Shown here one piece after another: positions 8,505 through 53,244 of a stretch of DNA of 64,000 nt (position 1 is the first letter of the stretch; the number at the start of each line of letters is the position of its first letter). Source of the DNA: a virus. The notes beneath the pieces are model-generated. The model ran no database searches. It was given only the letters and a program-made list of their open reading frames with translations, and was not told the DNA's origin. The position numbers were made by a program, and so were the translations under genes. Location: positions 32,001-96,000 of the IMG/VR virus record IMGVR_UViG_3300008259_004660; one strand, given 5' to 3'.

Positions 8505-8849
8505 ATGAGCAGTTCAATGAATAAAACAAAGATGATGAGTTTTTATGTCGAAGGACCAGATTGGGGACATACCGTCTCAATCGATCCAGAATTATTTGAT
8601 AATGAGCGTGCTCAAATCATGGAAGCTGCGAGTTCTGGTGTTGAAAAACAAATTGACTCCGACGAATTTAATCTTGGCGCAATTGTTATTGTGAAAAAAA
8701 ACAAATCCTCCAAGAAAGAAGCACTTGTTAATGCTTATCTATGTCTTGTCAACATAGGAAAATACAAAATGGCAGAGGATCTTCGTGCCAATTTCAAAAA
8801 GAGTTCTGGCCAAGATCTGGCAGAAGATAAAACAGGATACTCATTCTGA
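8505..8849 (+). CDS. Hypothetical protein
   Basis: 114-aa ORF. Confidence 0.65.
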   Translation: MSSSMNKTKMMSFYVEGPDWGHTVSIDPELFDNERAQIMEAASSGVEKQIDSDEFNLGAIVIVKKNKSSKKEALVNAYLCLVNIGKYKMAEDLRANFKKSSGQDLAEDKTGYSF

Positions 8850-8850
8850 T

Positions 8851-9111
8851 ATGACACGCAATCAGGCACAATCATTAATGGAAGATATTGAAAAGTCATT
8901 GACCAAGTCTGATTATTGCGAGGACATATATCTTAGCATACGAGATATTGGAACGAAAGTTTTCAAGAAGTGTGCGTATCATGAGGTTGAAGGATACACC
9001 TTCATATGGACGGTAAAAGAAAGATATCTTATCAGCAGAAAAGAAATTGGCGATTATGTTGTGATACCGTATGATGCTGCTATACAAATAACACTAAAAA
9101 AGGTTACATGA
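8851..9111 (+). CDS. Hypothetical protein
   Basis: ATG 8851 (MTRNQAQ...) directly after previous stop. Confidence 0.6.
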   Translation: MTRNQAQSLMEDIEKSLTKSDYCEDIYLSIRDIGTKVFKKCAYHEVEGYTFIWTVKERYLISRKEIGDYVVIPYDAAIQITLKKVT

Positions 9112-15720: not shown

Positions 15721-16572
15721 GTGTGGGCTGTGAATAACGGTCCACACATTTCCATTTTCAGCAAGGCACTGTATAGTAATTGGTGCCATTATCCTACTTA
15801 TAATCTATTATTCGATTGTGGCGAAGGGTGTGCTACTCATATTGGAAATCACCTCGCGGGTATTGACAGCATTTTTCTCACACATGATCATGGTGATCAT
15901 ACCCTCGGTATTCCAAGTGTAGTTGGATGTCGTAATGCTGGCAGAGGAATGAGTCGCAATAAAGACACAATGGAAAATAACAAACCGTTGTATGTATATT
16001 ATCCCGATGACAATTTCTTGATGAATGATCTTATCAAGTTTGTGCAATCTCGCACAGATGGATGGCTTCGTTATGACATGAAGTTTATTCCTATCTCTGC
16101 TGGTTTTGAAAAACAACTTGGTAAGAATGTATTTCTGCGTGCTTTCAATATGCAGCATCAAAAGAACAAAAGCACTCTGGGTTATGTTATTTACGAAAAT
16201 CGCACAAGACTCAAGAAAGAATATCAAGGGAAAGATATTCCAACTCTGATCAAGCATGGTGTTGACGGTAAAACTCTCAATGAGAATTATCGTGCCAACT
16301 TGTTCGCATATTGCTTGGATGCATATGCTATTCCAGATTATAATCAACTCATTGAGTGCAAAGATGTTATAATGGACTGCACATTTATCAACGCCGATGA
16401 TCGTGATGATCCTACGCACTTTACACTTGACGAAGCATATAAATTTTGTCAGTGTATCGGAATCAAAAACATAATTGCCGCACATCTGTCTGGTCGCTAC
16501 AATTATAATGAAGTATCCAAAGATTATCCCAGTATTAAATTCATCAATCCATATAAAGTAAACGAATTATGA
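15721..16572 (+). CDS. Metallo-beta-lactamase-fold nuclease, RNase Z-like
   Basis: LLFDCGEG, THDHGDH, MQHQ..STLGY, MDCTF, HFT, AAHLSGRY. Confidence 0.8.
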   Translation: MWAVNNGPHISIFSKALYSNWCHYPTYNLLFDCGEGCATHIGNHLAGIDSIFLTHDHGDHTLGIPSVVGCRNAGRGMSRNKDTMENNKPLYVYYPDDNFLMNDLIKFVQSRTDGWLRYDMKFIPISAGFEKQLGKNVFLRAFNMQHQKNKSTLGYVIYENRTRLKKEYQGKDIPTLIKHGVDGKTLNENYRANLFAYCLDAYAIPDYNQLIECKDVIMDCTFINADDRDDPTHFTLDEAYKFCQCIGIKNIIAAHLSGRYNYNEVSKDYPSIKFINPYKVNEL

Positions 16573-30737: not shown

Positions 30738-31505
30738 TTATTCAAGTTTTACATCAAAAGCTTTTTCAAATGCCTTTGGTGCTTCTTTATAGCTTTCTTG
30801 AGTTTCATCTTTTGGATCATTCAAGTATTGCCAATTAAAACTTAATTCATTTGGAACTTTGAACCCAAAGAACTTCAAAACGTTCTTTTGTGTTTCCAAA
30901 ACTTGCTCACCGTTCCAATTTTGACCAATAAACACAATACCTGCATCTTTATCTTTAATAATGTTATCTTCGTTCAAAGTGCTGTGTCTGTTTTCAAGCC
31001 AAGTCAAACGTTCGATCAATCTTTGATATACTCCGTTTGTTTGTCCCCATCTTACACTGCCAAAAAATACAACTGCGTCTGACTCAAACAATACTTTGCT
31101 GATCTTCCATAACTCATCGTCTTTGTTGTTGTAGCTGCACCAACAACGATGATCTCCTGTAGGATTCTTGGTTTTGTCTTTTAGTGCTGCTTCTTTTACT
31201 CCACAATTATTTCCTTCGTTCTTACTGACGTTACCTTCACAATCATATATCTTCAATTTTGATACATCGATAACTTCAGCGTTTCCAATTTCGTTTGCAA
31301 CATATTCAGCTAGTACACTGCTCTTTGGTTTTTGTTTGTCACCAACCCAACGATTGCTCGTAGTAAGAATCAGCACTTTTTTCTTTTGTTTCAGGCTATT
31401 GATCAATTTGTCCAACTTGCCTTCATACTCTGCATTCTCATTCAACTGAAAATGCTCGTTCAGAAGCTTACGATGCTTTAAAAATGTTTGTTCGAAATTG
31501 GACAT
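30738..31505 (-). CDS. Flavodoxin-like / NADPH-dependent FMN reductase family protein with Cys cluster
   Basis: VLILTTSNR, KSSVLAE, CEG..C..CWC, SDAVVFFGSVRWG..NGVYQRLIERL. Confidence 0.75.
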   Translation of the reverse strand: MSNFEQTFLKHRKLLNEHFQLNENAEYEGKLDKLINSLKQKKKVLILTTSNRWVGDKQKPKSSVLAEYVANEIGNAEVIDVSKLKIYDCEGNVSKNEGNNCGVKEAALKDKTKNPTGDHRCWCSYNNKDDELWKISKVLFESDAVVFFGSVRWGQTNGVYQRLIERLTWLENRHSTLNEDNIIKDKDAGIVFIGQNWNGEQVLETQKNVLKFFGFKVPNELSFNWQYLNDPKDETQESYKEAPKAFEKAFDVKLE

Positions 31506-31563
31506 ATATATAAATATTATCATTTATTATTTTAACATAGATTATTTGATATTTATCTACTGT

Positions 31564-33084
31564 ATGAAAAACTCAAATGTATTGAGTATAAGCGTTGAAA
31601 ATGCATGGAAGCCGTTGCCAGTTTCAGAGTGGAATGAAGAAAATGCACGGCATCTATTAAACAGAGCAGGATGGACAGCGACACCAGAAATGTTGAAGCT
31701 TGCTGTTTCAGAAGGATTGGGAAAAACACTTAATAGACTTTTTTCTTTGGGAGCAATGTCAAAGGGAATTATAAAACCGCCTTCTGTAGTAAGATTTGAA
31801 AATGAGGAGAAAGAGCTTCAAGCATCATTAAGAGGAGCAACTTCACCAGAAGAGCGTGCAAAAATTCGCAGAGAAATACAAAACAAGGAAAGAAACGGAA
31901 TAAATGATTTGGCGATGCAATGGATTAAAGATGCCGCCGAAATTGAAAATTCTGCATTTTACAAGTGGGTGTTGTTTTTAAGCGATGTGTATGTAGTTGG
32001 CGCGGACAAAGTGAGAAACCCAACATTCATACATCAACACTTCCAAATCATAGCAAAGAACGCATATATAACTGCACCATCTCTAACCAAAGAAATATCT
32101 CGTTCACCTGCTATGATTCAATACTTGGATCTAAATAGAAGCGACAAAAAAGCTCCAAATGAAAATTTTGCCAGAGAACTTTTTGAACTGTTTGTGCTTG
32201 GAGAGGGAAATTACAACGAGAATGATATCAAAGAATCGGCCAAAGCGTTCACTGGATATAGAACAAAAGGTGGAGACTTTTTCATCAACAATCAACAGCG
32301 CGACATGGGAATAAAAAGCATTTTTGAAAACACAGGAAGATTCAGCGGTGATGATGTAATAGATATTGCATATAAACAACCATCCGCAGGAAGATTCTTG
32401 CCGCAAGAAATGATAAAGTTCTACCTTACGGACACAGAAATTCCAATACAATATTTGGACGAGATAGCTAAGATATGGAGAAGCAAAAATTACAGTCTGA
32501 GGACTTTGCTTGGATTGTTTTTTGGAAGCAATATCTTTTACTCCAAGGAATACAAAAGAAACTATATCAAGAGTCCTATTCATTTTTACTGTGGTCTTGT
32601 ACAGGATATGGGAATAAAAGTTTCGCCGCTTCAAAGATTGGTTACACAACCATTAAGATCAATGGGTCAAATGCCATTTTATCCACCAAACGTTCGTGGT
32701 TGGGTTGGTGGAACCAATTGGATAAATTCATCAACCATACAAGCAAGAAGACAAACCGTTGAAAATCTTTTCGCCACAATAGATGAAAAGACATTAAATG
32801 CCGATGAACAAAAACAATTATCATTGGCAAAGGAAAATGGAACATATGAATTTGTGTTCAACGAAAAATCGTTAGCCGAACTATCAAAGCTATCAAACAA
32901 GGAAGCATCTTTTGTTTTATGCCATAGATTCATAAACAATCCTTCAAGAGAAATTCTTTATGGGATTGAGAGATTTTTAGGTACCCCCACCCTCAAAGGA
33001 AAAAAAGACAGCGGCACTCCCACCACAAGATTGAAAAGAGCAATTGTTACGATACTACAATCGCCAGAATATCAACTATGTTAA
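31564..33084 (+). CDS. DUF1800 family protein
   Basis: ARHLLNRAG, PAMIQYLD, PNENFARELFELFVLG, PPNVRGW, SPEYQLC. Confidence 0.9.
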   Translation: MKNSNVLSISVENAWKPLPVSEWNEENARHLLNRAGWTATPEMLKLAVSEGLGKTLNRLFSLGAMSKGIIKPPSVVRFENEEKELQASLRGATSPEERAKIRREIQNKERNGINDLAMQWIKDAAEIENSAFYKWVLFLSDVYVVGADKVRNPTFIHQHFQIIAKNAYITAPSLTKEISRSPAMIQYLDLNRSDKKAPNENFARELFELFVLGEGNYNENDIKESAKAFTGYRTKGGDFFINNQQRDMGIKSIFENTGRFSGDDVIDIAYKQPSAGRFLPQEMIKFYLTDTEIPIQYLDEIAKIWRSKNYSLRTLLGLFFGSNIFYSKEYKRNYIKSPIHFYCGLVQDMGIKVSPLQRLVTQPLRSMGQMPFYPPNVRGWVGGTNWINSSTIQARRQTVENLFATIDEKTLNADEQKQLSLAKENGTYEFVFNEKSLAELSKLSNKEASFVLCHRFINNPSREILYGIERFLGTPTLKGKKDSGTPTTRLKRAIVTILQSPEYQLC

Positions 33085-33088
33085 TACC

Positions 33089-34324
33089 ATGAAAAATCTA
33101 CCACACACACGCAGAGAATTTCTAAAAGTATCATCCACGGGAATTGGACTAATATCACTTGGTCAATTTGCACCGGAATTTCTGGTGCAATCGGCAATGG
33201 CGTCAACTCCGTTGCCAGAAAAAGATAAAAGTATACTTGTAATTGTTCAATTGGCAGGTGGAAATGACGGTCTTAATACTCTTATACCATACGAGGACAG
33301 CAATTATTACAAACTACGTCCGAAAATAGGTATCAAGAAAAAAGATGCAATTGTTATCAATAACACACACGCTCTACATCCTTCAATGGCAAAATTCAAT
33401 CAATTGTTCATTGAAGGAAAAGCTGGCATCATTCAAAATGTTGGTTATCCAAATCCAAACCGCAGCCATTTCAGATCGACTGAAATATGGGAAACCGCCG
33501 TTGACAGCGACAGAACATCAACAACTGGTTGGGTTGGAAGATTCATGGACAATCAATGTTCTGGTGTGCCAATAAATTCAACTGATCCATTGGCTGTGCA
33601 TATGACAAACAACACGCCACAATCTTTTGGAGGAAAAAAACCACATTCAACATTTGGATTTGTCAATAGAATAAACCGAAGAGACAACGAAGACACCAGA
33701 AAAGTATTAGAAACAACATATTTAAATACCAATGGTGAAAATGACAATAGTACATTTCTGAAACAAACACTCATGAACACTTTGCTTACTGAAAGAAAAG
33801 TGCAGCAAAAATTGGATGAATATAAACCATCGCACAATTATCCAAACAGTAATCTTGCTACATCATTGAAGAATGTTGCCGCCATGATAAGAGCAGGATT
33901 TCCAACCAGAGTATATTTCGTATCAATTGGTGGGTTCGACACACACAGCAATCAATTGATAAATCATTCAAACCTTTTGACACAGTTGTCTGATGCACTC
34001 CACGCATTTCAAAAAGACCTTGAAGGTCATAAACTAGACAAACAGGTCACCACAATGACATTCAGCGAGTTTGGTCGCCGCCCAAATGAAAATGAAAGTG
34101 CTGGTACAGATCATGGAACAGCCGCTCCCCTCTTCGTAATTGGATCAAATGTAAAAGGTGGAGTTTATGGCACTGCGCCAAATCTTAATCTGAAGAAAAA
34201 TCAAGATGTTGAATTCAGCACAGACTTCAGACAAGTATACAGTACTATGCTTGAGAAATGGATGAATTGTTCGTCTGAAAGTGTTCTTGGAAGAAAATAC
34301 AATGGTTTGGATATTATCGTTTGA
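33089..34324 (+). CDS. DUF1501 family protein with Tat signal peptide
   Basis: TRREFLK twin-Arg leader; VIVQLAGGNDGLNT, NRSHFRS, GGFDTH, FSEFGRR, GTDHG, DFRQVY. Confidence 0.9.
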   Translation: MKNLPHTRREFLKVSSTGIGLISLGQFAPEFLVQSAMASTPLPEKDKSILVIVQLAGGNDGLNTLIPYEDSNYYKLRPKIGIKKKDAIVINNTHALHPSMAKFNQLFIEGKAGIIQNVGYPNPNRSHFRSTEIWETAVDSDRTSTTGWVGRFMDNQCSGVPINSTDPLAVHMTNNTPQSFGGKKPHSTFGFVNRINRRDNEDTRKVLETTYLNTNGENDNSTFLKQTLMNTLLTERKVQQKLDEYKPSHNYPNSNLATSLKNVAAMIRAGFPTRVYFVSIGGFDTHSNQLINHSNLLTQLSDALHAFQKDLEGHKLDKQVTTMTFSEFGRRPNENESAGTDHGTAAPLFVIGSNVKGGVYGTAPNLNLKKNQDVEFSTDFRQVYSTMLEKWMNCSSESVLGRKYNGLDIIV

Positions 34325-34921: not shown

Positions 34922-35977
34922 ATGACAATGAATACATTGTCCGTAACTGTAAATGTTGACCAAACTCTACTTAATGCTCTTGAGCCATTTGATTACAAAT
35001 TTGATGGCACAAGTACATTTAGTCTACCATCGTTTGATGCTCCTAAACGCGATGGTAGTTGGGCGATTGGATTGATTGTTGGTCCATCTGGCACAGGTAA
35101 GAGTCAACTTCTAAAAAAGCATTATGGTATTACCTCAGAGCCTATATGGGATGCCAGCAAAGCTATTGCTAGTCAGGTTCAATATCAAAAATTAAGTGCC
35201 GTGGGATTGAATAGTGTACCGTCTTGGTGTCGCCCATATCATGTGTTAAGCAATGGTGAACAATTTAGAGCAAGAATGGCTGCAATGCTTGACAGCAATA
35301 CATCATTCGACGAGTTTACTAGTGTGGTTGATCGTACCATAGCAAAAAGCTGTTCTCACGCTCTTCAACGTCAAATTAGAAATGATAAATTGAATGGTGT
35401 TGTATTTGCCACATGTCATTATGATGTCACCGAGTGGCTGCAACCTGATTGGGTTTTTGATACACTTACACAGTCATTGACTGTGGGGAGGTCTCTTTGG
35501 CGACGCCCCGATGTTCATCTTTCCATCGAACGATGCGACAGTAGTTGGTGGCAAGTTTTTAAAGACCATCACTATTTGAGTGAAAACATAAACAAAGCAT
35601 CGCGCTGCTATATTGCAAAGTGGAACGACAACCCAGTTGGATTTGTATCCGTTCTTCCCATGCCAAGTGGAACTCTCAAGAATGCTTGGCGCGAACATCG
35701 TGTTGTAATTCTTCCAGACTATCAAGGAATTGGCTTGGGAGTAAGACTGAGTGATGCAATTGGACAGATGTATGTTGACGACGGCAAACGCTATTATAGC
35801 AAAACCGCACACCCTCGCATGGGAGAATACAGAAATAAATCCAAAAATTGGAAACCTACCAGCAAAAATATGAAAAACAGACAAGATTATAAAGCTGGTC
35901 ATGATAGGAAATACAGCAGTCAAAAACATGCGGACAGAACTTGCTACAGTCACGAATATATCAACAAAAGTTGTTGA
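34922..35977 (+). CDS. ABC-type ATPase fused to GNAT (Mom-like) acetyltransferase
   Basis: GPSGTGKS, LSNGEQFRA, FDEFTS; HHYL, V.PDYQGIGLG acetyl-CoA motif. Confidence 0.82.
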   Translation: MTMNTLSVTVNVDQTLLNALEPFDYKFDGTSTFSLPSFDAPKRDGSWAIGLIVGPSGTGKSQLLKKHYGITSEPIWDASKAIASQVQYQKLSAVGLNSVPSWCRPYHVLSNGEQFRARMAAMLDSNTSFDEFTSVVDRTIAKSCSHALQRQIRNDKLNGVVFATCHYDVTEWLQPDWVFDTLTQSLTVGRSLWRRPDVHLSIERCDSSWWQVFKDHHYLSENINKASRCYIAKWNDNPVGFVSVLPMPSGTLKNAWREHRVVILPDYQGIGLGVRLSDAIGQMYVDDGKRYYSKTAHPRMGEYRNKSKNWKPTSKNMKNRQDYKAGHDRKYSSQKHADRTCYSHEYINKSC

Positions 35978-46542: not shown

Positions 46543-46821
46543 AAAATTAAAAAACCATCACTTTTTTCTCGACAAATAGAATATATATGCTAAAGTAGAA
46601 TTGTTCTTTAAATAACATAGATAGGTAAGCATCCCTTTGATGAACCTACGGTGCGCATATCGCGCCGCCAGAATAATACAAGCTACAGACAGAGATGAAA
46701 GAAGCAAGTAGAGATAATGGTGGAGAGAAAGCGACAAACAAACATAGACAAAGATCATTGCTTGGTTAAATCGTAGGCTGTGGATGGATGGAGAATCAGT
46801 CGGTTTGAAAAATAATTTTGT

Positions 46822-46896
46822 GGCAGGGTAGAGTATGCGGTAACTCGTCACGCTCATAATGTGAAGCAACGGATTCAAACGCCGTCCCTGCTCCCA
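46822..46896 (+). tRNA. Divergent tRNA with CAT anticodon (Met-like, non-canonical T-arm)
   Basis: GGCAGGG/CCCTGCT acceptor, GAGT/ACTC D-stem, TCACG-CTCATAA-TGTGA, T-loop TTCAAAC with A53:G61 mismatch, 3' CCCA. Confidence 0.6.
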
Positions 46897-46937
46897 ATTT
46901 TGTATGTGTCCTGCGACGGGGCATACAAGAAAAAAAG

Positions 46938-46971
46938 AAAAGACCACGCTCCCGAAGGCGTGGTCTTTTTT
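46938..46971 (+). terminator. Intrinsic terminator
   Basis: aaagaccacgc/gcgtggtcttt stem plus T-run. Confidence 0.75.
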
Positions 46972-50115: not shown

Positions 50116-50307
50116 ATGAAACTGACGCAATACATCCGCCAACTCCAAGAAATCGCCAAGAAGCAGCCTGACGCAGAAGTGATTTATGCGGCAGACGAAG
50201 AAGGTAATAGTTATTCTCCTGTTTTTTACGAGCCGTCTCTTGGTTATTTTGATGGAGACAGTTTTGACACCACGGCGAAGCCTGTCAACGCCATCTGTAT
50301 CAACTAA
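50116..50307 (+). CDS. Hypothetical protein
   Basis: CACG-ATG; V.YAADEEGNSY pattern. Confidence 0.65.
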   Translation: MKLTQYIRQLQEIAKKQPDAEVIYAADEEGNSYSPVFYEPSLGYFDGDSFDTTAKPVNAICIN

Positions 50308-50316
50308 TTTTAGCTC

Positions 50317-50392
50317 GGGCTGGTAGCTCAACGGTCAGAGCAGAGGACTCATAATCCTTTGGTTAGGGGTTCGAATCCCTTCCGGCCCACCA
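50317..50392 (+). tRNA. tRNA-Ile2 (CAT, lysidine type) most likely
   Basis: GGGCTGG/CCGGCCC acceptor, GAGGA-CTCATAA-TCCTT, CCA; resembles ileX-type rather than fMet. Confidence 0.88.
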
Positions 50393-50402
50393 CTTTTATC
50401 AT

Positions 50403-50588
50403 ATGAAAACAATAATCAACAAAATAAAGGAGAACTCCACACAACTTATTCAAGGACTGTTTCTTGGTCTTTTTCTAACAATGGGTATTTTCAACATCGT
50501 TGATGGCATTTTCTTTTCAAAGATTATGTGGCAGACGAACTGCGGAGTTAATCAGATCATCATCGGTGCAATCATGTCCAAGATTTAG
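50403..50588 (+). CDS. Small membrane protein
   Basis: Two hydrophobic segments. Confidence 0.5.
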   Translation: MKTIINKIKENSTQLIQGLFLGLFLTMGIFNIVDGIFFSKIMWQTNCGVNQIIIGAIMSKI

Positions 50589-50638
50589 TTCTTGACTTTT
50601 TATAAAGAACAAGTACTCTGTGTCTTGTTCTTTTCAAT

Positions 50639-50713
50639 GGTCTTGTAGCTCAATGGTAGAGCCGTTGACTTTTAATCAATTGGTTGTGGGTTCGAATCCC
50701 ACCGGGACCACCA
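50639..50713 (+). tRNA. tRNA-Lys(TTT)
   Basis: GTTGA-CTTTTAA-TCAAT, GGTTCGAATCC, CCA. Confidence 0.93.
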
Positions 50714-50717
50714 ATTT

Positions 50718-50792
50718 CGCGATGAACCCAAAGACAAGGAGGGGGTGGGCTCGGTTCCCACAATAGTGCGTGAAAGCTCGCACCATCGCACA
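50718..50792 (+). ncRNA. tRNA-like cloverleaf, CGG in anticodon position, non-canonical loops
   Basis: GCGATG/CATCGC, CCC/GGG, GTGGG-CTCGGTT-CCCAC, GTGCG-TGAAAGCT-CGCAC; no CCA. Confidence 0.55.
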
Positions 50793-50846
50793 ATTTTTAT
50801 TGACAATTTAGGTAGGTAAGTCATAGTTATCTTTGTTCTTTTTAAT

Positions 50847-50921
50847 GCCGAGTTAGCACAATGGCGGTGCAACTGTTTTGTAAACAGTAGGTTGTCGGTT
50901 CGAATCCGACACTCGGCTCCA
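50847..50921 (+). tRNA. tRNA-Thr(TGT)
   Basis: GCCGAGT/ACTCGGC, ACTGT-TTTGTAA-ACAGT, CCA. Confidence 0.93.
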
Positions 50922-51038
50922 TTTTTCAGACAGAGGTGCAAGTAAGTCGTCTACATCCTCTGGAGTACTGCATAAGGTGCTTGACAGCAGTAAATAACAG
51001 GGCTCATGATCCTGCCTCTTTATCTGAACATTTTTTAC

Positions 51039-51113
51039 GCCGCTATCGTCTAACGGTTAGGACGCCGGATTTTCATTCCGATAATCGGGGTTCGATTCCC
51101 CGTAGCGGTACCA
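51039..51113 (+). tRNA. tRNA-Glu(TTC)
   Basis: GCCGCTA/TAGCGGT, GTC/GAC D-stem, loop TTTTCAT, GGTTCGATTCC, CCA. Confidence 0.92.
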
Positions 51114-51118
51114 ATTTT

Positions 51119-51313
51119 ATGAACGATTCTCATTTACTTCCTCCTCAAGCAGACATTGACGCTGCACTTCAGATTGAAAAGAGTGTGAAGCCAAGTGAGC
51201 GTGAGCGTTATTTGGAGTACATGAACAATGTTCCTATGTCTGACCGCAAGACCGCAAGAGAATTGCGTGATGGATGTATCTTGAGCCAACTTTTCAATCG
51301 TTTTCGCAGTTAA
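51119..51313 (+). CDS. Hypothetical protein
   Basis: ATG 51119 just after tRNA-Glu. Confidence 0.55.
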   Translation: MNDSHLLPPQADIDAALQIEKSVKPSERERYLEYMNNVPMSDRKTARELRDGCILSQLFNRFRS

Positions 51314-51432
51314 AGTTCTTGACTTTTTTTAAAATCTGTTCATTCTATCTCTTGTCAATGAGGTTTGGAAGCCGTCAACTGCCTCATCATTAAATTCAGG
51401 TATTGCTGAATGGCGCGGCCCAATTTTTGTTC

Positions 51433-51539
51433 TTTGTGGCCACAAAAACCGGTGTCAGGGAGCCCACAGGGTTATCCCTTATTGTGGGGAACGCTAGTCC
51501 CACGGCTCCACGGGGAGTCTCCGGAAATCTAGCGCGCCA
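51433..51539 (+). ncRNA. Unassigned structured RNA candidate ending in GCCA
   Basis: GGAGCC/GGCTCC enclosing CCCACA/TGTGGG and AGGG/CCCT stems; 14-bp palindrome TTTGTGGCCACAAA at 5' end. Confidence 0.4.
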
Positions 51540-51589
51540 ATTTTCTCTTGACTTTTTTTAAAATCTGTTCATTCTCTTCTTTGTTCTTT

Positions 51590-51814
51590 GGTAGTATCAA
51601 GACAGATAAAAGTCGCCTTGCGCGATGGAATCAAAGTTGAACAGTGATGTGTTCAATGAAAGGGTTTGGATTTATCACCAAATACCTGAGATTTAACCGA
51701 CCAGCGCCACCATTAAAAGCAAAGCCACACGGCATTGATTCGTCGGAAAGAGCAGCTTGAAAGTGTGAAACTCTTGCGGAACAGCAGAATTCCGCTATCT
51801 GTCTTGATATTATC
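51590..51814 (+). ncRNA. Unassigned 225-nt multi-branched structured RNA candidate
   Basis: 19-bp closing stem 51590-51608/51796-51814 with two G-U pairs; internal hairpins TTGAACA/TGTTCAA, GTTTGG/CCAAAT, AAGAG/CTCTT, GCGGAA/TTCCGC; own promoter at 51548; no plus-strand ORF. Confidence 0.6.
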
Positions 51815-52000
51815 ATTGACTTTCTTTAATTTTTGTTCATTCTCTTCTTTGTTCTAGGGTGCATTGCCAATAGGAAGTACTCACGGAACTACAGTAAGCA
51901 ACAGTTAGTGCGGAACTCGTGACGAAGATTCTGATCAAATCCTAGTTAGCGTGATTATGGATCGGCTCCATCGCTGTTGCTGAAATCTTTTTTGTTCTTT

Positions 52001-52170
52001 TGATTTTCTCTCATTATTCCGCAACATTGTAAAAGGTGAAGCGCGTGTATCGAAAAATGTAATGGGAGAATATTTTTTGGCAGGTCGCTCTGCCGGAACT
52101 CTAAAATCTATGCCAAGCGCTAGTGACCCTTGCCGGTATCACACAGGTTGACCTCTGGATTTTAGAGAAT
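52001..52170 (+). ncRNA. Two further stem-enclosed RNA candidates
   Basis: attttctctcatta/taatgggagaatat stem; GGCAG/CTGCC hairpin; CTCTAAAATC/GATTTTAGAG stem. Confidence 0.4.
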
Positions 52171-52178
52171 ATTTTTAC

Positions 52179-52260
52179 GCAGTGTTGGTGTAGCTGTGCA
52201 ATAAACATAGTTGGCAATCCTGCCAAAAGTCGGGCAGCGCGTCCTGCTCACACTGCTCCA
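52179..52260 (+). ncRNA. tRNA-like RNA with perfect acceptor stem and CCA but non-canonical arms
   Basis: GCAGTGT/ACACTGC-T-CCA; CTGTG/CATAG; TTGGC-AATCCT-GCCAA; GGGCAG-CGCGTC-CTGCTC. Confidence 0.6.
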
Positions 52261-52305
52261 ATTTATCTTGACTTTTTTTAATTCTTCAACGACACTATCA
52301 GCAAG

Positions 52306-52470
52306 ATGAAACTTGAATGCTGCGATGTTGAGTTAGATTATGAGAGTGCTGGACGGCGTGACACCGAGACGATTGGTGGATACAGCGTCGAGTATTTTAT
52401 CTGTTCTGAATGCAAGCAGCGTTATGAACTTATCGGAAATAGTTTGTGTATGACTGAAGAAGAGCCTTGA
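52306..52470 (+). CDS. Small Zn-ribbon-like protein (not in ORF track)
   Basis: ECC ... CSEC; promoter at 52268. Confidence 0.55.
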   Translation: MKLECCDVELDYESAGRRDTETIGGYSVEYFICSECKQRYELIGNSLCMTEEEP

Positions 52471-52503
52471 CTTTCTTTAAATTTAGTTCAAACTGACTTC
52501 ACG

Positions 52504-52704
52504 ATGAAGCCCGAATATCGCATTCAGATTTACGACAAGCAGTACCTTGAATGGAATACTTTTCCTGATGGATGTTTTGATAGTAAAGAAAAGGCTATTG
52601 CTGAAGCGGTTAAGGTTCTTAAGGGGTGGGGTAAACGCAATCACAAGATTCGTTTGATTGAAGTGTGTGAGAAAGTTATTCGGCTTCCAAGCATCAAGAA
52701 ATAA
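52504..52704 (+). CDS. Hypothetical protein
   Basis: Promoter cassette, CACG-ATG. Confidence 0.65.
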   Translation: MKPEYRIQIYDKQYLEWNTFPDGCFDSKEKAIAEAVKVLKGWGKRNHKIRLIEVCEKVIRLPSIKK

Positions 52705-52950: not shown

Positions 52951-53244
52951 ATGAAAATCAAACTGCAAGAAGCTCTTGACCTTATTCAAGCTGCTGATGT
53001 TGTTCGTGTAACTGATATGGATGGATTTATTGAGCCTATCATCTCATTCAGTGATATTGAAGGCAAGCCAGACAATGAGTTTATGTATATGAGTTGGGAT
53101 GATGAACATGATGAGTTTGGTGCCAGATTTCTTGAAGAAGGCAATGAAGAAGTAGAGCGTGATGGCAACAAGATTGCTATCACCGACAGCGAAGGCAGCG
53201 AGTTTGAGTTTAATCTGTTTCGCCTAGTGCCGATTCTAGCTTGA
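52951..53244 (+). CDS. Hypothetical protein
   Basis: ATG 52951 after promoter at 52913. Confidence 0.6.
   Translation: MKIKLQEALDLIQAADVVRVTDMDGFIEPIISFSDIEGKPDNEFMYMSWDDEHDEFGARFLEEGNEEVERDGNKIAITDSEGSEFEFNLFRLVPILA

Follow-up and report, generated by a model that had tools for sequence, protein, structure and literature searches.

What does a phage transfer RNA (tRNA) cluster encode besides tRNAs? The question is raised by positions 50590-52265 of a stretch of 64,000 nucleotides (nt), hereafter the window, which spans bases 32001-96000 of the 184,824-bp IMG/VR virus record IMGVR_UViG_3300008259_004660 and belongs to a large uncultured freshwater phage. This island holds three tRNA genes, one conserved open reading frame (ORF) of 64 codons, five early promoters and nine other structured units, named A to I (coordinates are window positions unless stated otherwise, and the features given with them lie on the + strand). 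Most of these units are conserved in relatives, where a change on one side of a helix is matched by a change on the other, so that they are very probably real RNA genes under selection. Units A, B and I are likely to be tRNA-derived mimics, and on balance we favour reading the locus as an early-expressed island of modular build, whose stable RNAs (tRNA mimics and stem-closed forms) are matured by tRNA-processing enzymes. An earlier reading of the sequence alone (the sequence-only reading) had recognised the three tRNAs, one small ORF and at least five further folded units, some tRNA-shaped and others of no known family, and had named ARAGORN, Rfam and covariation in relatives as checks; these analyses return conserved, covarying units that belong to no known family.

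Nine structured units accompany the tRNA genes

The tRNA genes, tRNA-Lys(UUU) at 50639-50713, tRNA-Thr(UGU) at 50847-50921 and tRNA-Glu(UUC) at 51039-51113, all encode CCA and are called in agreement by ARAGORN and Rfam, which also bear out the earlier assignment of all three; outside units A-I, tRNA-Met and tRNA-Arg upstream were called as tRNAs too. Comparison of units A-I with 4227 Rfam families gave no match at the gathering threshold or at E<=10, matches other than those to the tRNAs being attributable to chance, and the tRNA model RF00005 (gathering threshold 29 bits) did not match any of them even at E<=10, nor did ARAGORN call one. Three of the units (A, B and I) form four-way junctions of cloverleaf shape. 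The sole credible ORF of the island (51119-51313) starts 5 nt past the CCA of tRNA-Glu, has no family match and was found again in relatives, where it comes after tRNA-Glu or unit C. Small ORFs overlapping D, E and I have no PHROG family.

As we read them, the transcription units are Lys-A; Thr-B-Glu-ORF; C-D; E; and F-G-H-I. An early promoter at 50592-50633 (TTGACT-N16-TACTCT, then a TTGTTCTTT leader at 50625-50633) precedes tRNA-Lys, and a promoter at 50800-50841 (TTGACA-N16-CATAGT, with a TTGTTCTTT leader at 50833-50841) precedes tRNA-Thr. A 28-nt promoter word is repeated exactly at 51319 (copy 1, 51319-51346), 51548 (copy 2, 51548-51588, together with most of a TTGTTCTTT leader at 51581-51589, the last base of which is base 1 of unit E) and 51816 (copy 3, 51816-51855, with the leader TTGTTCT); a copy with 3 mismatches lies at 52467, and 100 shuffles contained none. 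The sequence-only reading had near-identical promoters leading to RNA structures rather than to proteins, which holds for the three exact copies but not for the promoter at 52268, which drives the near-leaderless ORF 52306-52470 and with it (52268-52470) ends the RNA island. Its dedicated promoters are likewise present, with more at 50800 and possibly a further internal one at 50981-51010 inside unit B, but there is not one per unit. The window has 32 copies of the promoter core CTTGACTTTYTTTAA, where 0.8 are expected, and almost all of them lie at 40-60 kb. Most are followed by a [C/T]AnnnT box and then by an ATG only 9-10 nt on, so that the early genes are near-leaderless one-gene cassettes. 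Units A-I are bounded by U-rich (C)CAAUUUU-type junctions, often with TTGTTCTTT in front, as in the spacers at 51427-51435 and 51992-52000.

The units form a mosaic, covarying array in related phages

Many metagenomes of freshwaters, lakes and rivers, from 16 studies in all, contain near-identical DNA. Relatives were assembled in three ways: a helicase 8 kb upstream of the island, used as query, led to three related IMG/VR phages, one of them a complete 297-kb genome; a 97-aa protein just downstream (52951-53244) had 33 homologues, whose contigs were collected; and a unit A pattern retrieved 70 metagenome stretches, of which 28 hold true A copies. Pooled, the relatives amount to about 40 arrays. 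Scanning IMG/VR with the unit A pattern added nothing beyond the three relatives already known. The GTDB species genomes, scanned with the same pattern and then with a covariance model, yielded no true member (best score 17.9 bits, against at least 39 for real members) and therefore no cellular source or host clue. In blastn of 50200-52700 against 50,697 GenBank phage records, tRNA segments were the sole matches.

Seven units (A, B, C, F', G, H and I, where F' is the core of unit F) recur in related freshwater phage contigs, and six of them (A, B, F', G, H and I) show compensatory pair changes; in A, B and I covariation upholds a four-helix cloverleaf. The arrays are mosaic across the approximately 40 contigs, in that the order and presence of units differ even where the common units are identical: one relative (L030) has neither D nor E, another (L035) has no E, and a third (L073) has the order H-F'-G-I-C-B-A. 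Relatives also hold an extra unit, K, which is closed by a 12-bp stem and has the canonical T loop UUCAAUG and 5 compensatory pairs, as well as further types (J, and several in L031 and L035), and homing-endonuclease-like ORFs break up some of their arrays. Single-linkage clustering of array segments merged multi-unit segments and gave no family count.

Unit A (50719-50793) is a tRNA-like cloverleaf of 6/3/5/5 bp, composed of a closing stem, a D-like stem, a middle arm and a T-like arm, and it has a 6-bp stem and a 3' ACAA tail where a tRNA would have 7 bp and CCA. Across 8 variants all 151 of 151 cells are paired and 7 of 19 pairs have changed on both sides, and RNAalifold arrives at the identical fold independently on this set. 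With 27 distinct variants, 99.4% of 511 cells are paired and 12 of the 19 pairs are compensatory; none of 500 shuffles was as good, and sliding the partners by 1-3 columns reduced pairing to 30-53%. Against this changing scaffold, the T-like loop UGAAAGCU (UGAAARCU) and the D-like segment UGAACYCAAAG...GGAGRG are invariant, and the anticodon-like loop of the middle arm varies in length (5-7 nt) and sequence. Neither A nor I combines the 7-nt anticodon loop with U33, the UUCRANY T loop and the D-loop GG of a tRNA. Some arrays have two unit A copies of different subtypes, or a distant A-like copy of 39 bits with a longer variable arm (L061:3-81 and 795-873; L047:163-240; L067:5121-5198), which suggests that the variable arm diversifies. 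The GGAG segment of unit A was considered as an anti-Shine-Dalgarno sponge and dropped, as the second clade keeps GGAG alone.

Unit B (50925-51028) forms a four-way junction from a 6-bp closing stem and three hairpins. Eight of its 25 pairs are compensatory and are spread across all four helices, and its two large loops, one of which contains TTGACA, are invariant; it has no 7-bp acceptor stem with discriminator and CCA. Because the loops of A and B are invariant while their stems covary, sequence-specific recognition of these RNAs is indicated. This bears on the possibility that the units are structures acting only in cis, as processing punctuation, stabilisers or insulators that free the tRNAs and the near-leaderless ORF mRNA, with no function as free RNAs. 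Such a role would suit the uniform U-rich junctions, the closing stems, which would shield RNA ends, and the 64-codon ORF, which always begins a few bases past a structured unit (tRNA-Glu or C). We nevertheless regard it as unlikely, given the invariant loops and covarying stems of A and B, the promoter that E has to itself, and the runs F-G-H-I, C-D and E, in which there is no tRNA or ORF to free.

Unit I is a candidate glycine-accepting tRNA mimic

Closest to a tRNA in outline is unit I (52179-52260), a 7/4/5/6-bp cloverleaf with an encoded U-CCA end, in which 100% of 132 cells are paired and 7 of 22 pairs are compensatory. Invariant in all variants are G1-C72, C2-G71, U73, the CCA and the CC of the anticodon-like loop; pair 3-70 is A-U or G-C. 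The loop is 6 nt long and reads N-N-U-C-C-N in four loop types, and in one clade it is a 7-nt loop with ACC in which the CC register is shifted. Unlike a canonical tRNA, unit I has the T-like loop CGYGNY and a large, variable D region without GG, with about 70 nt inserted there in two relatives. Identity for E. coli GlyRS resides in G1-C72, C2-G71, G3-C70, U73, C35 and C36. Judged by its letters, unit I carries glycine identity nucleotides and can probably be glycylated.

Could unit I, and perhaps other tRNA-shaped units, then be an aberrant decoding tRNA, a tRNA-Gly(UCC) that reads GGA and completes a U34 set for A-ending codons? The canonical tRNAs in the approximately 40 related contigs (Lys UUU, Thr UGU, Glu UUC, Arg UCU, Leu UAA, Ile UAU and Ala UGC) all have U34, no canonical tRNA-Gly was seen among them, and unit I retains, beside its acceptor identity and CCA, a UCC that is preceded by U in three of the four loop types. 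A decoding role is nonetheless improbable in view of the 6-nt anticodon loop, the CC that is out of anticodon register in the clade with the 7-nt loop, the departures of the T loop from UUCRANY and of the D region from GG, the D-region insert, and the rejection of unit I by both ARAGORN and the Rfam tRNA model. A parallel is the staphylococcal non-proteinogenic tRNA-Gly, which likewise combines glycine acceptor identity and CCA with altered D and T loops; by this analogy unit I could be chargeable yet poor in ribosomal decoding. The two differ in that the loop of unit I has 6 nt and the phage has no FemAB-type transferase. A GNAT protein (34922-35977) was considered as a Fem-like enzyme and found no support.

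The remaining units are stem-closed or multi-hairpin RNAs

Downstream of its variable 5' part (51857-51896), which is swapped for other sequence in some relatives and is missing in L002, unit F has a conserved core, F' (51897-51971), with an 8-bp closing helix, a conserved GUGCGGAACUCGUG segment and a hairpin with the loop UCGGC. Among 10 variants, the closing helix AGCAACAG/CTGTTGCT found here is replaced in a second clade by CATCAAAG/CTTTGATG, so that 5 of 8 positions differ. Unit G, which follows the TTGTTCTTT spacer (51992-52073 including it), is a long irregular hairpin with 3 of 18 pairs compensatory and a folding z-score of -2.2. Unit H (52078-52170) has a short hairpin and then a 12-bp stem around a conserved core, with 4 of 28 pairs compensatory, from 2 sequences only. 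Unit E (51589-51815) is a 227-nt multibranch RNA that stops at the next -35 box; its 20-bp closing helix includes two G-U pairs, which are able to pair on the + strand only, and its fold is exceptionally stable (z = -5.34, with none of 200 shuffles as stable). Unit C (51350-51422) was read by eye as two hairpins with a conserved tail, GCGCGGCC, which possibly pairs with a conserved loop segment GCCG to form a pseudoknot; variants occur in four relatives (L030, L073, L076 and L084), with a distant member in L031. Unit D (51436-51539) is a GC-rich multi-hairpin RNA with a CCA end. By z-score, B, C, D and F do not stand out, and B and F are supported by comparison only; for D and E, which have no divergent homologues, the support consists of context and, for E, thermodynamics.

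That E, G and H are not tRNA-shaped would agree with RNAs outside tRNA biology that regulate in trans, for example small RNAs pairing with host mRNAs, or that soak up proteins such as Hfq, CsrA or RNases, their tRNA-like ends being mere processing handles, and so would conserved single-stranded loops, which could pair with targets, and the purine-rich GGAG segment displayed by unit A. No target can be named, and no known sponge motif repeats were seen; the one candidate common motif, CGGAAC (4 occurrences against 0.29 expected), was rejected as not significant after correction for 4096 words. We judge this explanation quite unlikely.

A boxA-like leader marks the RNA transcripts

The word TGTTCTTT has 12 copies on the + strand of the 185-kb genome, where a Markov model expects 4.5 per strand. 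Five of the 12 lie inside the island, within 1.4 kb, and a sixth precedes an RNA upstream of tRNA-Met. The leader box is present after 4 of the 5 RNA promoters and after none of the 40 promoters that lead to ATG-ORFs (Fisher p ~3e-5, calculated from the counts). Its core GTTCTTT fits positions 1-7 of the boxA consensus GYTCTTTAANA (PMC5725501), which is gamma-proteobacterial; in boxA, NusB-NusE reads 8 nt (PMC3177189). As in rRNA operons and lambda nut, where boxA is found, a U-rich GTTCTTT core opens untranslated transcripts, and it is missing where the same promoters serve translated genes, as expected of boxA leaders. The phage leader differs from these systems in fitting 7 of 11 positions and in having no recognised boxB or boxC. 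Antitermination of the boxA type is a plausible prediction for this leader, if one to which we give somewhat less than even weight.

The sixth copy belongs to an element of the same kind outside the island (46569-46971), which consists of a promoter, a TTGTTCTTT leader (46601), an RNA, tRNA-Met (46822-46896) and an intrinsic terminator (46936-46971). The RNA is a conserved structured one of about 215 nt (46605-46821), with 6 of 22 pairs compensatory in 8 relatives; it has a purine-rich middle and the word GATGAACC in common with unit A.

Logan contigs from four metatranscriptome runs of four studies cover parts of the island: between them, contigs of three studies take in F' (51897-52000), G and H+I, and one contig of a fourth takes in B (50892-51043); the small ORF is covered too. 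Two H+I contigs, which come from two studies, begin at 52079 and 52081, at the 5' end of H, and H+I contigs end at 52251-52267. In runs X15-X17, the gaps at 51114-51850 and beyond 52298 were not counted as evidence. Since contigs cannot show RNA ends or abundance, or exclude DNA, this cover is a weak hint of expression.

These results also tell against decaying tRNA pseudogenes and junk spacers kept by their position between useful tRNAs. This very improbable account draws on units that are tRNA-like in outline with damaged loops and on the absence of a significant fold in D and of divergent homologues for D and E. In the case of A, B, F', G, H and I it has for the most part been refuted by helices upheld through many double substitutions in six families, invariant non-tRNA loops, a leader motif specific to RNA units and the spread of the units over many lakes and rivers. 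The sequence-only reading had likewise preferred expressed, selected RNAs to decayed spacers, a preference with which covariation in six units, the conservation of C, the lack of Rfam matches, the leader motif and the metatranscriptome contigs agree.

A phage tRNase Z homologue may mature the array

The window encodes a candidate maturation enzyme, a homologue of tRNase Z (15721-16572; 283 aa), which is a metallo-beta-lactamase with the motif HDHGDH (HxHxDH). Its best solved relative is T. maritima tRNase Z (1WW1; E = 1.3e-36 over residues 11-262, full-length), its best NCBIfam model is Thermotoga-type RNase Z (TIGR02650), and the gene is kept in two relatives (G003 and G001). In G001 it is split or broken by one in-frame TGA (G001:C1:56839-57662), which may be a sequencing error, a pseudogene or recoding. 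Thermotoga maritima tRNase Z is reported (Minagawa et al. 2004) to cut directly after an encoded CCA, and this mode of cutting matches the CCA layout of the phage array. The phage homologue scores below the curated cut-off of the family, and its activity and cleavage site are predictions. We give even chances to the prediction that it matures the 3' ends of the array.

A model for the island and the points that weigh against it

In order to bring these features together, we propose the following scheme. Host sigma-70 RNA polymerase would start at early promoters of the kind that also serve near-leaderless protein genes. The boxA-like element UUGUUCUUU, at the start of or between RNA transcripts, would recruit NusB/S10 and render these untranslated transcripts Rho-resistant, as in rRNA operons. 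The precursors Lys-A, Thr-B-Glu-ORF, C-D, E and F-G-H-I would then be cut into stable RNAs, with RNase P acting at acceptor/T-like stacks, the phage Thermotoga-type tRNase Z, or RNase E, at (CCA)AUUUU junctions, and RNase III at long closing stems. The mature products would work in trans by mimicking tRNAs and binding proteins. Their most likely role would be to titrate or divert host enzymes that recognise the tRNA shape, such as tRNA-directed defence nucleases, synthetases and processing enzymes. Specific protein recognition and a part in phage-host conflict are suggested by three features: the invariant non-tRNA loops on covarying stems, the fast turnover of cassettes and the neighbouring U34 tRNAs. 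A decoy or counter-defence role, as predicted from these features, is at present a tentative suggestion, as were the decoy, scaffold and anti-defence functions offered by the sequence-only reading. Doubtful is the more far-reaching version, a counter-defence or host-takeover arsenal drawn from a shuffling pool of at least 8 tRNA-mimic families. Antitermination of the boxA/Nus type would give these RNAs high levels, the phage tRNase Z would trim them, and each would trap a different host protein that recognises tRNA (an anticodon nuclease, a synthetase, or a modification or processing enzyme), with unit I as a chargeable glycine mimic.

Several observations weigh against this scheme. The sequence names no target for the decoy role, and the RNA-library contigs cannot prove transcription, as DNA carry-over is possible. 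The helices of unit C are weak, with a positive RNAalifold covariation term and a consensus built on invariant pairs; unit D folds no better than shuffles (z = -1.25); and in the collected arrays D and E occur as identical copies only, with no divergent homologues. The leader misfits boxA at positions 8-11, just 7 of 11 positions matching a gamma-proteobacterial consensus that may not be that of the host. The tRNase Z homologue scores 126.8 bits with TIGR02650 against a curated cut-off of 507, and its Pfam family also includes anti-Pycsar phosphodiesterases. Finally, the look for protein partners of the RNAs encoded by the phages was negative: no Ro/TROVE, RtcB, class-II CCA-adding enzyme or FemAB was found in four related phage records (G000-G003), which weakens the ideas of Y RNAs, of RNA-repair partners and of a Fem-type transferase.

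Relation to known phage RNAs

Non-tRNA stable RNAs have been known in phage tRNA clusters since T4. To our knowledge their function has never been explained, and we know of no such RNA families described in freshwater jumbo-type phages. The units of the island constitute several new RNA families within this old, unexplained class.

The closest precedent is the pair RNAC and RNAD of T4, small RNAs of the tRNA region to which no role has yet been assigned (PMC3014915, PMC9697503). Like the units here, they are non-tRNA small RNA genes inside a phage tRNA cluster and are presumably co-processed with it; blastn finds no sequence relation between the two sets. In contrast to T4, the island packs nine units, a subset of a larger cassette pool, into 1.7 kb and places them behind early promoters with a dedicated leader motif, whereas RNAC and RNAD are classed as late RNAs (PMC9697503). 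A large IMG/VR survey predicted many tRNA-like candidate phage RNAs without characterising them (PMC10690425). With YrlA and other Y RNA-like mimics the units have in common a modular build, a long closing stem and a tRNA-like domain, and some units of relatives (K and J) have a canonical T loop as those mimics do. They differ from Y RNA/YrlA in that no TROVE gene is present in the four related phage records and no Rfam model matches; as no Ro gene was found, mimics of the Y RNA type are unlikely. GOLLD and ROOL are also structured phage RNAs of unknown function that often lie beside tRNA genes, but these are single elements of 500-800 nt, and their Rfam models are unmatched here.

This phage group supplies about 10 conserved families with clear structures, natural presence/absence variants and a defined expression signal. 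Together with an enzyme that may mature them and one member whose identity (glycine) can be read, they open an old question to experiment. Should the units be decoys for tRNA-directed immunity or for translation factors, they would represent a new class of RNA-only phage weaponry.

Genomic context and further observations

The island lies in a dense early region that extends from about 40 kb of the window onward. GC content is 36% in the first 40 kb and about 43% thereafter. Between 40600 and 59300 there are about 30 early promoters (CTTGACTTTTTATAA...[C/T]AnnnT) with an ATG 36-40 nt on and no Shine-Dalgarno sequence, the start context of these near-leaderless cassettes often being GCACGATG. 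Within the part with 36% GC, adjacent DUF1800 and DUF1501 genes (31498-34324) represent families typical of Planctomycetes/Verrucomicrobia. WhiB was not found in the four related phage records, and an actinobacterial host gets no support.

Unusual tRNA genes also occur in the arrays of relatives. Four tRNA-like genes to which ARAGORN assigns 4-base anticodons (gcca, ctgc), implying 8-nt loops, adjoin unit K (L041:108-183, L073:938-1013, L046:1821-1896 and L072:2065-2141). Forms with a long extra arm, tRNA-Thr of 86-87 nt and tRNA-Ile(UAU) of 93 nt, replace the 75-nt forms (L004:18300-18385, L035:453-538 and L073:2427-2519), and one tRNA-Met (L031:1168-1276) is split at the anticodon loop by about 33 inserted nt, which may be an intron. 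Elsewhere in the phage genome, outside the window, three tRNA-Leu genes lie at genome positions 754-2276, and ARAGORN calls a transfer-messenger RNA (tmRNA) at 8603-8996 whose long basic tag has LAAA at its end. In one relative, a 42-aa ORF (L038:6487-6615) has a weak precomputed Pfam match to ArfA, an alternative ribosome rescue factor, which is notable beside a phage tmRNA.

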